Below are positions 5,458 through 50,718 of a stretch of DNA of 64,000 nt, one piece after another. The position numbers and the translations under genes were made by a program. The stretch comes from Escherichia phage UP19, in sequence record OX638288; one strand, 5' to 3'. Within the stretch, counting starts at the first letter, position 1; each line of letters starts with the position of its first letter. The notes under the pieces are model-generated. The model was not told the origin of the DNA, searched no databases, and saw only the letters and a program-made list of their open reading frames with translations.

Positions 5458-6273
5458 TTAAGAAATTCGTGATGCTGCGATTGCAGACAGGTCCGCGAAG
5501 GACAGGGTAGGCTTAGCGCCTTTTTCTTCAACTGCTTCCGAAATATAATTCAGTGCTGCAGCATCGTCTTCAGTTTTATTTATAGCGGCTTCGGTGATTG
5601 GTTTTTCAACGTCAGTCTGGCCTTTAACCATTTCAACGATAGCGCCAATTTTTTTACCAAATGCATCGGAATAATCCATGCCTTCTACCAGAGAACTAAC
5701 TTTTTCTTTCTGAGATTCAGTCAGGTCTTTAGTTGCTTCCATAACAGCTTGTTCACGCTGTACGTAATTAATATATGCGTCACGCTTGCCAACTTCTTCG
5801 AACAAACGAGCGGTTTCGGCTTTCTGTTCAGCCAATTCTTCTTCCATTTCAGAAACAACGTCTACTGCTTCTTCTGGAACAACCACGTTATGTTCAACAA
5901 ACAGTTCTTTCATACCCATCAACATGGATTCGAACAGTTCGGCTTTAATACCTTTATCAACAGCCAGCTGGTTTTCAGCCATCCATTCTTTAGCGACGTG
6001 GTCAAGGAAACGACCAGCAGCTTCTTGGATTTTCTTATCAGCTTTTTCTTCAGCTTCTTCTTTATTTTTCTCAACTTCTTCTTCCGCTTTTTCAGCGATT
6101 TTAGCGATGTGAGATTCCGCCAGTTTAACGGCGTGTTGCTTGACGGTAGCTTCGAATACAGTGCCGAAAGTTTCTTTTGCTTCCGGAGAAATATTAACTG
6201 ATTCGAAAATACTGTCAAGAGCAACGGAAGCATCAATATTCTGTGCTTCGGCGATCAGTTGTTCTTTAAGCAT
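5458..6273 (-). CDS. 22: gp22 prohead core scaffold protein
   Basis: 271 aa, highly acidic and helical; synteny 21-22-23. Confidence 0.85.
   Translation of the reverse strand: MLKEQLIAEAQNIDASVALDSIFESVNISPEAKETFGTVFEATVKQHAVKLAESHIAKIAEKAEEEVEKNKEEAEEKADKKIQEAAGRFLDHVAKEWMAENQLAVDKGIKAELFESMLMGMKELFVEHNVVVPEEAVDVVSEMEEELAEQKAETARLFEEVGKRDAYINYVQREQAVMEATKDLTESQKEKVSSLVEGMDYSDAFGKKIGAIVEMVKGQTDVEKPITEAAINKTEDDAAALNYISEAVEEKGAKPTLSFADLSAIAASRIS
5577..5584 (-). promoter_or_regulatory. Late promoter TATAAATA upstream of gene 23, inside the 3' end of gene 22
   Basis: Plus-strand TATTTATA at 5577-5584. Confidence 0.5.
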
Positions 6274-6300: not shown

Positions 6301-6308
6301 TATTTATA
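6301..6308 (-). promoter_or_regulatory. Late promoter TATAAATA upstream of gene 22
   Basis: Plus-strand TATTTATA at 6301-6308, 28 bp upstream of the gene 22 ATG. Confidence 0.55.
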
Positions 6309-6939
6309 ACGCTTTTTTCATGGCCTCTGCGAGAGCCATAAAGGCGTCATCGGCACTGGTATCGGTATCTACCGTTTGTGATTCTGTAATTTGTTTAGGA
6401 GTTACATAAGCATCAGGAGCAGATGGACCCCATACTGCATCAACACCGACGGTTAATTTATAACCTTCGTTTACACGCTTATATCCTTTATTGGTTTCGG
6501 TTAAAGAACCTAGACCACGAGAACTAACACCAGGCACCCAACCGGCTCTAATATTAGCAGCTAGTTTATCACCAGGACCATGGTCGCCTTCAATAATACG
6601 AGCACGTCCATAAACGTCATTACCTTTCCACCACATATCTTCAATAATAATAGCGGCTTGCATAGGGTCGACGTTAGCGCGAGGCGGATGATTTAATTCT
6701 CCTAAAGCTTGTTTAGTAGCAACCTGTTCTGCCATATAATCAGCAACAGCTTTTTCCAAAATAGGTTTTGGATAAAGGCGTTTATTACGGTTAACCACTT
6801 CGGCTTGCATGAATATGCCTTCTATATAAAGGCCCGGGGCAAGTCCAGAATCTTTTCCATCATGAGATTCCAACATCGGAACCCCATCGATAATTTCACC
6901 TGGTTGTCCCCAATGTTCGATGAGCAATTCAGGTTTCAT
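6304..6939 (-). CDS. 21: gp21 prohead protease
   Basis: 211 aa; synteny 68-21-22; length matches T4 gp21. Confidence 0.85.
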   Translation of the reverse strand: MKPELLIEHWGQPGEIIDGVPMLESHDGKDSGLAPGLYIEGIFMQAEVVNRNKRLYPKPILEKAVADYMAEQVATKQALGELNHPPRANVDPMQAAIIIEDMWWKGNDVYGRARIIEGDHGPGDKLAANIRAGWVPGVSSRGLGSLTETNKGYKRVNEGYKLTVGVDAVWGPSAPDAYVTPKQITESQTVDTDTSADDAFMALAEAMKKAL

Positions 6940-36788: not shown

Positions 36789-37687
<899 letters not shown>

Positions 37688-37699
37688 TTTAAAAAAGGT

Positions 37700-37728
37700 G
37701 TTTACAAGGTCTATAGACATGATACTAT
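37700..37728 (+). promoter_or_regulatory. Early promoter module (GTTTAC, 17 bp, TACTAT)
   Basis: GTTTAC 37700-37705; TACTATAGGCCTATCAA box. Confidence 0.6.
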
Positions 37729-37765
37729 AGGCCTATCAAAACAAACCAACCACATGGAAATCAAA

Positions 37766-37990
37766 ATGAAAACTTATCAAGAATTTATTACAGAAGCTAA
37801 AAAACACGAAGACCAACTGCCGGTTGTTACAAAAACCTTTGACGGTACATTGGCCGATTTTAAAAAAGTCCCTAGTGATAAGCTCGCTAAATTGGCCGGG
37901 AGTATCGGTGAAAAAGATGGCAAGGTCACGTTTTCTGCTCAAGGTACAGCCAATCTTAAAAAACTTTTGAAAGCCGCTGGCGCAGAATAA
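37766..37990 (+). CDS. Internal-protein-like gene (MKTYQEFITE|AK), Lys-rich
   Basis: Capsid-targeting leader at the ATG 37766; the ORF-track start 37754 lacks an SD. Confidence 0.6.
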   Translation: MKTYQEFITEAKKHEDQLPVVTKTFDGTLADFKKVPSDKLAKLAGSIGEKDGKVTFSAQGTANLKKLLKAAGAE

Positions 37991-37991
37991 A

Positions 37992-38264
37992 ATGAAAACT
38001 TATCAAGAATTTATCGCTGAATCTATTCTTAATGAGGAAGTAAAAATTAACAAATCTGTTAAGACTATGATTGATAATATAAATCATCTCTATAACATCG
38101 ATTTGACTAATCATGTAACTTTAGGCAATAAGCTAAACTTTTTTGTATTCGATACTTCAGAACTCGACCAAAATCAAATCAATAATATTGAACGCTTTGC
38201 TAATGACAAAGGGCTTCGTCACGAAACAGCTGGCTATAAAAAATATGCAATTTATCTAAAATAA
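37992..38264 (+). CDS. Internal-protein-like gene (MKTYQEFIAE|S)
   Basis: Capsid-targeting leader; ATG one base after the upstream stop. Confidence 0.6.
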   Translation: MKTYQEFIAESILNEEVKINKSVKTMIDNINHLYNIDLTNHVTLGNKLNFFVFDTSELDQNQINNIERFANDKGLRHETAGYKKYAIYLK

Positions 38265-38267
38265 ATT

Positions 38268-38297
38268 GTTTACAACGGGCTTTAGTGATGATACTAT
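38268..38297 (+). promoter_or_regulatory. Early promoter module
   Basis: GTTTAC 38268-38273; TACTATAGCCCTATCAA box. Confidence 0.6.
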
Positions 38298-38333
38298 AGC
38301 CCTATCAAAACAAATGAGTGATTGGAGAATAAA

Positions 38334-40318: not shown

Positions 40319-40319
40319 A

Positions 40320-40490
40320 ACAAGAAACCGGGTCGCTACCGGTAAGTCGTCGGACTGAAGCTCCCTGAATAAGACCCGACTTTAAGGCGTACATGAGTTG
40401 ACCTCTTAAAGTCCCTTATCTCACAGCTGAAACGGCGCACAGAACACTTGCCTAGCAGGTGGAACCCCGACAAGGTTACCCTAGGTTAAA
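40320..40490 (+). ncRNA. Putative small stable RNA downstream of the tRNAs (T4 has small stable RNAs in its tRNA cluster)
   Basis: About 170 nt with no ORF, between the last tRNA and a strong terminator; GC-richer and palindrome-rich. Confidence 0.3.
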
Positions 40491-40518
40491 GGCCCTTCCG
40501 AAAGGTTGGGCCTTTTTT
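40491..40518 (+). terminator. Intrinsic terminator (copy 1 of a duplicated cassette)
   Basis: GGCCCTTCC-GAAA-GGTTGGGCC followed by TTTTTT. Confidence 0.7.
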
Positions 40519-40519
40519 G

Positions 40520-40527
40520 TATAAATA
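40520..40527 (+). promoter_or_regulatory. Late promoter TATAAATA
   Basis: Immediately after the terminator, 27 bp before the ATG at 40554. Confidence 0.55.
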
Positions 40528-40553: not shown

Positions 40554-41108
40554 ATGAAACTTTTAAAATATTTGAGTTGGATTCTGTTGGTCCCACTAGA
40601 TTTTATCTCTATGGTTCTAGCCGTTATCCTTGCGCCTTTTGTGGTTCCTTTTCATAATAAAAAGACTGGTAAATTGCCATACGGTTTTGATTGGATGATG
40701 ACATACGATAATCCAATTGACGGCGATAAAGGTCATATTAAACGTTGGGCTAAAATCAGGAAAATGCCTGGTGGTGTTTATCTCCAGAGAGTAGCTTGGC
40801 TATGGCGAAATAAAGCTTATAACTTTGCTTATCATAAACTAGGCCGTGATTGTAGCTCGGAATTCCATTATCGTGGTAATCCTGACGTAGAATCAGGTTC
40901 TCCTGATAAAGCTCACCATGGTTGGTTGTGGATGTGGAATGATGACGCCTGGGGTGTATTTGCTTCAGTTCCTTATCTTAAGGTCGGCGGAATCACATTT
41001 TACCTTCGCGTGTACTGTGGCTGGAAGCTTAAGAGTCTTTTGTCTCGTAAAATCCCTAAAGCTATGTTGGCCTTCCACGTGAACCCGTTCCGGTTCTACA
41101 AGAACTGA
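40554..41108 (+). CDS. Membrane-anchored hypothetical protein
   Basis: 184 aa; N-terminal transmembrane helix; flanked by identical terminator and late-promoter cassettes. Confidence 0.5.
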   Translation: MKLLKYLSWILLVPLDFISMVLAVILAPFVVPFHNKKTGKLPYGFDWMMTYDNPIDGDKGHIKRWAKIRKMPGGVYLQRVAWLWRNKAYNFAYHKLGRDCSSEFHYRGNPDVESGSPDKAHHGWLWMWNDDAWGVFASVPYLKVGGITFYLRVYCGWKLKSLLSRKIPKAMLAFHVNPFRFYKN

Positions 41109-41113
41109 TTTAC

Positions 41114-41140
41114 GGCCCTTCCGAAAGGTTGGGCCTTTTT
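41114..41140 (+). terminator. Intrinsic terminator (copy 2 of the cassette)
   Basis: Same GGCCCTTCCGAAAGGTTGGGCC plus T-run as at 40491. Confidence 0.7.
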
Positions 41141-41141
41141 G

Positions 41142-41149
41142 TATAAATA
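41142..41149 (+). promoter_or_regulatory. Late promoter TATAAATA
   Basis: Follows terminator copy 2; 29 bp before the ATG at 41178. Confidence 0.55.
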
Positions 41150-41177
41150 GATAAGTTAATTAACACAGGAAACAATA

Positions 41178-41795
41178 ATGAAAACTTACAATGAATTTTT
41201 GAACGAAAGCGTTCTGAATGAAGCCGGCGTGCGCATGACTAAAGATATGTGGCAAGCTGCTTATGATAAAATTTCCGGGACTAAAACCACTACCGAGTTC
41301 TTTAAAAACGTTTATGATATGTATGGTTTTGATACTAGTAGCCAGAAAGAATATTACAAAGCTTCCAAAGCTTTTAAAGATATCGTAGCCGGTGGCTCTA
41401 CTAAGCCTGCTAAACCAGCTAAAGCTCCTGTTTCTAAACCCGCGGCTCAGACCAAAGTTGCAGCACCGAAACCTACACCTAAAGCAGAGCCTGTAAAAGA
41501 AGCTCCTAAACCTAAAATCAAGTTCGACACCAGCACTATTGTTAAAAAATATAACCAGCTGGCTTCTTTAGTGTCGGAAATCGAATCCGAAACTAAACAA
41601 CTTGTTCGAGAATTCAATGTTCTTCGTAATGGTCAACACATTAACAACCTAGATACCCCGGACCTCTATCGTCTTTACCTGACGGTTGAAGGCCTTAAGT
41701 ATACCCAGCCTATGCACGAAGAAATTGATAACAAACTTCGTCAAGCCCGCCGCCTTGCAGGTGACGCCGCTCAGTTCGAAAAGACCCGTAAATAA
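41178..41795 (+). CDS. IPIII-like internal protein (leader MKTYNEFLNE|S, Lys/Pro/Ala-rich basic linker)
   Basis: 205 aa against 194 for T4 IPIII; capsid-targeting leader; KPAKPAKAPVSKPAA..PKPTPK histone-like tract; late promoter. Confidence 0.6.
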   Translation: MKTYNEFLNESVLNEAGVRMTKDMWQAAYDKISGTKTTTEFFKNVYDMYGFDTSSQKEYYKASKAFKDIVAGGSTKPAKPAKAPVSKPAAQTKVAAPKPTPKAEPVKEAPKPKIKFDTSTIVKKYNQLASLVSEIESETKQLVREFNVLRNGQHINNLDTPDLYRLYLTVEGLKYTQPMHEEIDNKLRQARRLAGDAAQFEKTRK

Positions 41796-41799
41796 TGAA

Positions 41800-41820
41800 A
41801 GGAGACTTCGGTCTCCTTTT
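41800..41820 (+). terminator. Intrinsic terminator
   Basis: AGGAGAC-TTCG-GTCTCCT followed by TTTT. Confidence 0.65.
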
Positions 41821-41854
41821 AGGGGGTTTAATCTAAAAATAATTTCACAAAGTT

Positions 41855-41883
41855 GTTTACACCTCCTTTAAACGTGATACTAT
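41855..41883 (+). promoter_or_regulatory. Early promoter module; spacer CCTCCTT is complementary to the downstream SD AAGGAG
   Basis: GTTTAC 41855-41860; TACTATAGACCTATCAA box. Confidence 0.6.
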
Positions 41884-41918
41884 AGACCTATCAAAACAAC
41901 AGAGTGAAGGAGAGTAAA

Positions 41919-49152: not shown

Positions 49153-49647
49153 ATGGATATTTTTGATATGTTACGTCAAGACGAAGGTCTTGATTTAAAT
49201 CTTTATAAAGACACTGAAGGTTATTGGACTATTGGTATTGGCCAGTTAGTTACCAAGAACCCATCTAAAGATGTTGCTCGTGCCGAACTTGACAAACTTA
49301 TGGGTCGGGTTTGCAATGGACGTATTACTATGGCTGAAGCTGAACAACTCTTTAACCGTTCAGTGGAAAATGCTCGTAGAGCTATAATGCGTAATCCTAA
49401 ATTGAAACCGGTTTATGATGTGCTGGACGAAGTTCGTCGTTGCGCGCTGATTAATATGGTCTTTCAAATGGGTGAAGCTGGTGTCGCTGGATTTACCAAC
49501 TCTCTGCGTATGCTCCAGCAGAAACGTTGGGATGATGCCGCAGTTAACCTGGTGCAGTCCCGTTGGTATAAGCAGACTCCGAATCGCGCTAAGCGAGTTA
49601 TCTCTACATTTAAAACAGGAACTTGGAAAGCATATGAAAACCTATAA
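49153..49647 (+). CDS. e: Endolysin (T4 lysozyme)
   Basis: 164 aa; catalytic E11, D20 and T26 conserved; roughly 70% identity by eye to T4 lysozyme as remembered. Confidence 0.93.
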
Positions 49648-49903
49648 AGAATTTTTGGCCGAATCTCAACTGAACGAAAACACTGACCTAGACCGTATGA
49701 CATTCCTGGCTAAGAAAGGCGGCTTCGAATTTAAAGCCATTAAGAAAGTAAATGGGTATTCTTTTGAAGTCGGTGAATATACCTTTGGTAACAAGGGTGA
49801 TGGCCAGTGGCAAATTGTTAAAAACGGCAAAGAAGTAGACTACCTTTTCGGTAAGAAACTTAGTGACATTGCTAAAATAATGGGCGAATATTCTAAAAAA
49901 TAG
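49634..49903 (+). CDS. Internal-protein-like gene ([10 protein letters not shown]|S)
   Basis: Capsid-targeting leader; ATG 49634 overlaps the 3' end of e. Confidence 0.6.
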
Positions 49904-50418: not shown

Positions 50419-50718
50419 ATGAAAACTTATCAAGAATTTATTACAGAAGCCAAAGCTCCTAAAGCATTCCAAATAGGTGTCCAAGGCACCTTAGACCAAG
50501 AATATGTTGATGCTATTGTAGCAAGCCTCGGTAAACAGGGCGTACAAGTGGATTTGGTTGATTTTACTAAAGGTAATACTTTTAATATTGTTACATCTAA
50601 AGGCTCTTTAGCTAAAGTTAAAAAGGCCTTTGGTGTAGCCCAAGCATACGAAATCGACCACTCTGAATTAGAAAATAAAGGTCGCCAGAATACAATTAAA
50701 GGTTCTGGTTCTTTCTAA
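50419..50718 (+). CDS. Internal-protein-like gene (MKTYQEFITE|AK)
   Basis: Capsid-targeting leader; 99 aa against 100 for T4 IPII. Confidence 0.6.
   Translation: MKTYQEFITEAKAPKAFQIGVQGTLDQEYVDAIVASLGKQGVQVDLVDFTKGNTFNIVTSKGSLAKVKKAFGVAQAYEIDHSELENKGRQNTIKGSGSF

Follow-up and report, generated by a model that had tools for sequence, protein, structure and literature searches.

Internal head proteins enter the host along with the phage DNA. To our knowledge, IPI* of T4, an anti-restriction weapon, is the only internal head protein whose function is understood. Genetic work in T4 mapped capsid targeting to residues 4 and 7 of the leader and cleavage to residues 8 (I/L) and 10 (E) (PMC9026906), and the first 10 residues of IPIII are enough to bring foreign proteins into heads (PMC9026906; PMC3012670). 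The leader can be shared by internal proteins that are otherwise unrelated, and in T4 heads only the lysines of internal proteins contact the DNA phosphates (PMC3012670). T4 IPIII carries a capsid-targeting leader with an (I/L)-x-E cleavage site and is encoded by a non-essential late gene on the early-gene strand; on the T4 map, ipIII is located between e and ipII/denV, and ipI between trna.4 and 57B. The polymorphic Ip proteins (IPI, IPII, and the Ip4-Ip13 type; phrog_7673, phrog_8765, phrog_2667, phrog_4363, and phrog_7857) share the leader and have unrelated mature parts; they are single-domain proteins of 69-100 aa, are encoded mostly at the ipI and e/denV loci, and vary in presence among close relatives. 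Another described system is that of the PeSL, mobile regulatory cassettes of RB49/phi1 in which a repeated stem-loop and an early sigma-70 type promoter flank accessory genes and mark recombination joints (Arbiol et al. 2010, PMC2839356).

The gene described here occupies positions 41178-41795 (+) of the window, which is the whole stretch of 64,000 nucleotides from Escherichia phage UP19 (sequence record OX638288) that was analysed. In this region, identity reaches 99.8% with Escherichia phage EcWhh-1 and 98.3% with JS98, two phages of the genus Dhakavirus, and the window is that of a JS98-type Dhakavirus. The gene is the counterpart of JS98 orf135 (YP_001595264), and its product is a "hypothetical protein" in every record listed. 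It probably encodes an accessory internal head protein of this JS98-type T4-like phage, an analogue of IPIII belonging to phrog_2280, which would be packed and injected with the DNA.

Expression signals, leader, and domains of orf135

The ORF encodes 205 aa from the start MKTYNEFLNESVLNE and is preceded by a Shine-Dalgarno sequence, AGGAA, at 41167-41171 (+), 6 nt ahead of the ATG, as read directly from the sequence. A perfect T4-type late promoter motif, TATAAATA, is present at 41142-41149 (+), 28 nt 5' of the ATG and straight after an intrinsic terminator at 41114-41140 (+), which is made up of a hairpin at 41114-41135 (GGCCC..CC-GAAA-GG..GGGCC) followed by T5. This hairpin, overlooked by a simple terminator scan because of its internal loop, has a folding energy of -15.3 kcal/mol (z = -3.2 vs shuffles) and terminates orf136, the gene on the upstream side. 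On the downstream side, a second intrinsic terminator with a UUCG loop (GGAGAC-UUCG-GUCUCC and a T-run) extends over 41796-41826 (+), its hairpin at about 41796-41821, and the early-type promoter for the e.8 homologue comes only after it. The TATAAATA motif occurs 16 times in the window vs 7.5 expected, a count reached by none of 100 shuffles, and (T/C/G)ATAAATA is found after a terminator hairpin 5' of the homologues in six genera (Tegunavirus, Marfavirus, Karamvirus, Mosigvirus, Winklervirus, and Kanagawavirus). On this motif evidence, the ORF is probably expressed late, as a monocistronic unit insulated by two terminators. The dN/dS of the whole gene is 0.02-0.14, so the gene is real and under purifying selection.

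The locus is bounded by the tRNA cluster and orf136 on one side and by the e.8 homologue on the other. The orf136 gene (DUF7338, phrog_2143; 40554-41108 (+)) has a TATAAATA of its own, 26 nt ahead of it, and is predicted to encode a late-expressed membrane protein whose N-terminus is hydrophobic; it adjoins the putative internal-protein gene. Behind tRNA-Arg, the stretch 40319-40440 (+) is clearly homologous to T4 rnaD (species 2 stable RNA), with both ends conserved; it is unannotated in the JS98 record and has no Rfam family match, and it is followed by a tRNA-like T-arm segment near 40455-40475. The Rfam scan of the ORF neighbourhood returned three tRNAs only.

Positions 41178-41222 (+) encode the leader (propeptide), MKTYNEFLNE/SVLNE/A, in which slashes mark the candidate cleavage points. 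Two L-N-E protease motifs are present in the ORF product, at residues 8-10 and 13-15, and the mature N-terminus could thus be Ser11 or Ala16. MKTYNEFLNE has all four of the residues mapped in T4 leaders (Y4, F7, L8, and E10), and seven of its ten positions, including these four, match T4 IPIII/IPII; the functions ascribed to the leader here are taken from that T4 literature. The family alignment covers at least eight genera; of its 43 sequences, 37 have [LI]xE at leader residues 8-10 and four shorter ones have it at residues 7-9. Position 4 is aromatic across genera despite diverged leader DNA (MLNFKEFIAE, MYTFNEFLAE, and MLKFKDILTE), and a second [LI]xE site at residues 13-16, beside Ala or Ser, is common in the family.

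The enzyme expected to cut off the leader is the gp21 prohead protease (Peptidase_S77, Pfam E = 1e-103), encoded at 6304-6939 (-) and adjoined by the gene of the gp22 scaffold (T4_CASP, Pfam E = 5.5e-90) at 5458-6273 (-); the window also encodes gp23, gp20, and gp24. The gp22 protein has 14 [LI]xE sites, of which 12 are past residue 20 vs 4.6 expected there, whereas those of the ORF product are confined to the leader. Depletion of [LI]xE gave no signal in the mature part of the window protein (0 observed vs 1.16 expected, P = 0.28), nor was any found in the mature parts across the family (42 observed vs 44.8 expected), and so this test offers no evidence that the protein persists in a compartment full of protease.

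An AlphaFold2 prediction run on the 43-sequence alignment gave two helical domains joined by a disordered linker. The N-domain, residues 16-73 (41223-41396 (+)), is marked by invariant or near-invariant columns (RMTKxxWQ ... YGxxT ... YYK ... AFK) and is predicted to be helical at residues 18-73 with a pLDDT of 82-88. The C-terminal domain, residues 114-205 (41517-41795 (+), stop codon included), is of type A (..NNLDTPDLY..) and has three long helices at 119-204 with a pLDDT of 83-97, the predicted fold being a generic antiparallel three-helix bundle. Among Dhakavirus orthologues, the dN/dS is about 0.03 for the N-domain and 0.03-0.06 for the C-domain. Searches of Pfam, NCBIfam, and PDB sequences with the ORF product returned sub-threshold low-complexity or coiled-coil noise only; fold and profile searches provided no functional lead, and the fold searches gave no sign of DNA binding.

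The Lys/Pro/Ala linker between the two domains, residues 74-113 (TKPAKPAKAPVSKPAAQTKVAAPKPTPKAEPVKEAPKPK; 41397-41516 (+)), has a pLDDT below 50. It contains 10 K, 2 E, and no R or D, with a net charge of +8, and the mature protein as a whole has a net charge of +12. Across the family the linker is 33-54 aa long, with 22% A, 21% P, and 20% K and a net charge of +2 to +10 (mean +7), its composition being kept and its sequence variable. Its dN/dS among Dhakavirus orthologues is 0.1-0.75, with indels among close relatives, and it includes a 9-nt repeat of 2.6 copies at 41401-41423. Its weak profile matches are only to other Pro-rich spacers, e.g., TonB. The linker is a disordered interdomain tether, short, length-variable, and under relaxed constraint, with no long histone-like repeat array.

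The original prediction had assigned to this interval a strong terminator with a late promoter directly behind it, a capsid-targeting leader, a low-complexity basic linker, and a helical C-terminal domain, and all of these elements lie where it had put them, the leader with a gp21-type cleavage motif. Its description of the tract as histone-like finds little support, the tract being 40 residues long with relaxed constraint and a 9-nt unit repeated 2.6 times. Membership of the histone H1 or AlgP-like KPAA-repeat proteins, in which long Lys/Ala/Pro arrays form most of the protein, is likewise unlikely, as the tract makes up just 40 of 205 residues and is located between two folded, constrained domains; no Pfam or NCBIfam match was above threshold.

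Relation to T4 IPIII and the polymorphic internal proteins

The same prediction had called the protein IPIII-like and proposed an alignment to T4 IPIII. The likeness stands for the 10-residue leader, the size, the charge, and the Lys/Arg content (205 vs 193 aa; pI 9.51 vs 9.54; K27/R8 vs K26/R8), but not for the homology of the mature part or for the locus. The BLASTP alignment with T4 IPIII is limited to residues 1-25, and comparison of the family profile with IPIII by hhalign gave a probability of 6%, in the leader only. The ORF product matched phrog_2280 ("unknown function") with E = 3.4e-59, its residues 1-200 aligning with the entire profile (positions 1-178 of 178). T4 IPIII belongs to phrog_5341 (3e-117), IPII to phrog_7857, and IPI to phrog_4363; phrog_5341 is not among the listed PHROG matches of the ORF product, which reaches the internal-head-protein PHROGs solely via its first 22-24 residues. 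Nor did sequence, profile, or PHROG family reveal any similarity of the mature part to IPII or IPI, and a tblastn search of the window with T4 IPIII, IPII, and IPI detected leaders only.

The genomic position also differs from that of T4 ipIII, since the gene is found between the tRNA cluster/orf136 and e.8 instead of between e and ipII/denV, and the slot after e in the window is occupied by an 89-aa leader-bearing ORF at 49634. Both proteins have a capsid-targeting leader, a late gene (for orf135, a predicted one) on the early-gene strand, dispensability, and near-equal length, pI, and Lys/Arg content; unlike IPIII, the ORF product has two domains with a PAK linker and a second L-x-E at residues 13-15, and after the leader neither sequence nor profile similarity remains. 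As judged from sequence, the ORF product is not a homologue of IPIII and resembles it at most as an analogue, in its size, charge, and proposed route.

The window contains five further leader-bearing ORFs, and for four of these the PHROG family annotation is internal head or virion protein. Three are in tandem at the ipI locus (37478-37687, 37766-37990, and 37992-38264, all (+)), one overlaps the end of the lysozyme gene (49634-49903 (+)), and one comes after denV (50419-50718 (+)). The ORF at 37478 has a GTG start and belongs to phrog_23867 ("unknown function"). The three ORFs of the ipI locus are situated around early-type promoter repeats, without a perfect TATAAATA. Like these polymorphic Ip proteins, orf135 combines the shared leader with a mature part unrelated to theirs and is variably present among close relatives; unlike them, it is modular and twice as long, its locus is tRNA-e.8, and no annotation calls it an internal protein.

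The phrog_2280 family and exchange of its modules

Full-length relatives of the ORF product were identified in 143 phage records, all of T4-like phages of Enterobacterales, and 511 phage records, most of them from Tequatrovirus-type phages of Escherichia/Shigella, contain a sister subfamily of 157 aa. An exhaustive profile search of 1.84 billion representative proteins returned 21 hits only, among them no bacterial homologue of known function, and the hits whose sequences were inspected had the same leader type and architecture. The family layout consists of the leader, a variable N-domain, the basic linker, and one of two C-domains. At least three types of N-domain and two of C-domain exist, the alternative versions being unrelated to one another and variously combined; the type-B C-domain, unrelated to type A, is found in Kanagawavirus-type members and some other, mostly metagenomic ones. 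The phrog_2280 profile is also matched by the 157-aa protein of vB_EcoM_005, Yen9-01 gp153, and a CIP9 protein. Yersinia phage fHe-Yen9-01 has tandem phrog_2280 genes at 1501-2070 and 2080-2616 of the extracted segment, gp154 being a full-length homologue and gp153 a protein of 178 aa with the leader MLEYSEFLKE, so phrog_2280 can be duplicated in one phage. 

For the 157-aa subfamily, virion evidence is available from the literature. The g140 protein of Yersinia phage fD1 (phiD1) has the leader MKSYTQFLNEAVLNEA, a near-identical terminator and TATAAATA cassette, and the corresponding locus, and it shares 81.5% identity with the 157-aa protein of vB_EcoM_005, itself a phrog_2280 match with a C-domain homologous to that of the window family (hhalign 93%). 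LC-MS/MS of purified virions scored g140 as particle-associated, on the strength of 2 or more peptides and a mean spectral count of 2 or higher (PMC8309999, supplementary Table S3). As 113 proteins, enzymes among them, were particle-associated in that study (PMC8309999), the specificity is moderate, and the detection of g140 is supportive rather than decisive. By analogy with this sister, whose leader and cassette are near-identical, the prediction that orf135 is late-expressed and capsid-packaged gains weight. The subfamily of g140 resembles orf135 in its locus after tRNA and stable-RNA genes, its cassette, its leader with two LNE sites, its PAK linker, and its homologous C-domain; it differs in an unrelated N-domain, a length of 157 vs 205 aa, a much shorter linker (16 residues, net about +2), and the mass-spectrometric detection of g140 in virions. 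No homologue was found in the syntenic region of phiR1-RT, and a peptide search for a homologue found none in the accessible part of the ValerieMcCarty (Jiaodavirus) supplements. In the text of the ECLFM1 (Karamvirus) paper, the "hypothetical" bands are left unnamed, and no virion proteome paper for a Dhakavirus was found in the literature.

Two sister phages do without the gene. In VR5 it has been deleted, the last ~25 nt remaining beside the same downstream hairpin, and JS10 is without an orf135-type gene; the gene is thus accessory and not required for head assembly.

The terminator and promoter cassette of orf135 is itself repeated. A second terminator with TATAAATA at 40486-40527 (+), ahead of orf136, is near-identical to 41109-41149, including a 32-nt repeat at 40486-40517 with 94% identity, and this copy is a recombination partner of the orf135 cassette. 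In vB_EcoM_005, the terminator, promoter, UTR, and first 16 codons are identical to those of orf135, yet they head the different, 157-aa gene, which is located upstream of orf136 and not downstream, the gene order being permuted. At 1484-1612 of the segment extracted from vB_EcoM_005, the tRNA-proximal copy of the cassette is fused to the orf135-type UTR and 16-codon leader. Within orf135, the leader and N-domain do not differ from JS98, IME281, and CLB_P2 at any synonymous position, but dS rises to 0.18-0.45 in the C-domain; this contrast between the 5' half and the C-domain indicates a breakpoint near the linker and recent recombination. The joints suggest that the gene has been swapped at the promoter cassette, at the end of the leader, and probably near the linker.

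In its arrangement, the cassette looks like a late-promoter counterpart of PeSL shuffling. A repeated stem-loop with a promoter flanks accessory genes and marks recombination joints in both, and in both the surrounding gene order differs between sister phages; unlike the PeSL, the cassette of the window has the late TATAAATA promoter, is present in two copies, and is accompanied by a second joint at the end of the coding leader. The window also has a family of 64-nt repeats at 37681-37744, 38250-38313, and 41836-41899 (+), each with an early-type promoter (GTTTACA ... TACTATAG) and a conserved CCTATCAAAACAA leader, which are similar to the PeSL early cassettes of RB49/phi1.

Proposed role, competing explanations, and significance

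The orf135 product would follow the route of the T4 internal proteins. Late transcription of the monocistronic unit from TATAAATA, between its two terminators, would yield a protein whose leader ties the nascent chain to the prohead scaffolding core, built of gp22. Cleavage by gp21 after Glu10 and/or Glu15 would release a mature protein of ~21.4-21.9 kDa with a pI of ~9.6, and its two small helical domains on a flexible Lys/Pro/Ala tether would stay inside the head, amid the packaged DNA. Contacts with DNA phosphates would probably be made by the lysine-rich tether and surface, and on ejection the mature protein may enter the cell together with the DNA.

That orf135 is a true orthologue or a diverged homologue of T4 IPIII is highly improbable. 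The shared leader type, the near-equal length, pI, and Lys/Arg counts, and the fact that the window has neither another IPIII-sized leader-bearing ORF nor an IPIII match would fit such a relationship, but leaders are common to unrelated internal proteins (PMC3012670), and past residue 25 the two proteins have no detectable similarity by BLASTP or hhalign and fall into separate PHROGs. The tRNA-e.8 locus against the e-ipII locus of T4 and the two predicted helical domains with the PAK linker, which have no counterpart aligned to IPIII, speak against it as well. It is unlikely that the Lys/Pro/Ala tract is an H1- or AlgP-like DNA-condensing module and carries the main function of the protein. 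Its Ala, Pro, and Lys content and positive charge are kept in the family where its sequence is not, and the phosphate contacts of T4 heads are made only by internal-protein lysines (PMC3012670); against this, it spans only 33-54 residues with 2.6 copies of a 9-nt repeat, is relaxed between two strongly constrained domains, matches only Pro-rich spacers such as TonB, and is reduced in the sister subfamily to 16 residues with a net charge of about +2. A tether that is short, variable, and much reduced in a sister subfamily makes a dedicated histone-like role unlikely.

The remaining alternatives concern the place where the protein ends up. A prohead core or assembly accessory protein that is degraded or expelled at maturation, neither staying in the mature virion nor being injected, would account for the leader and the gp21 motifs, which show core entry only; T4 IPIII itself affects the rate of head assembly (PMC9026906), and generic fold searches liken the long helical C-domain to scaffold elements of the coiled-coil type. 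This reading is quite unlikely, since the restriction of [LI]xE to the leader, against 14 sites in gp22, means that the protein should survive as one large fragment, and since fD1 g140 is present in mature virions and the gene is dispensable in sister phages. An unpackaged late cytoplasmic protein, with the leader merely part of a conserved recombination cassette of promoter, UTR, and first 16 codons, is very unlikely. Hitch-hiking is conceivable where cassette and leader DNA are identical between different genes, but the key residues of the leader are kept in genera where divergence has affected the DNA and the other leader residues, which points to selection on the leader peptide, and the virion detection of g140 again argues the other way. 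Set against these explanations, an injected accessory internal head protein remains the favoured reading, and orf135 probably adds a member to the polymorphic class of T4-type internal head proteins that is already known.

A host-specific function exerted once the protein has been injected, modelled on that of IPI*, would be in keeping with the accessory status, the modular swaps, and the strong constraint that acts on each domain. A bolder extension would make phrog_2280 a set of combinatorial injected effectors, in which the leader and basic tether carry interchangeable helical modules, swapped at the promoter cassette, the leader end, and the linker, and each countering a different host defence at DNA entry, as IPI* does against GmrSD; this we regard as a doubtful, speculative possibility.

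The finding fills an annotation gap and gives evidence of cargo swapping at the level of leader and cassette, and it does not describe a novel type of system. In annotation, "putative internal head protein" would be a better label than IPIII for JS98 orf135 and its relatives. The identical leader and promoter unit on different genes provides a concrete example of the swapping of packaged cargo, in a modular family that is found in ~650 sequenced T4-like phage records, many of them therapy candidates, and that is "hypothetical" in all records inspected. Such a family would supply candidate anti-defence or DNA-organising factors.
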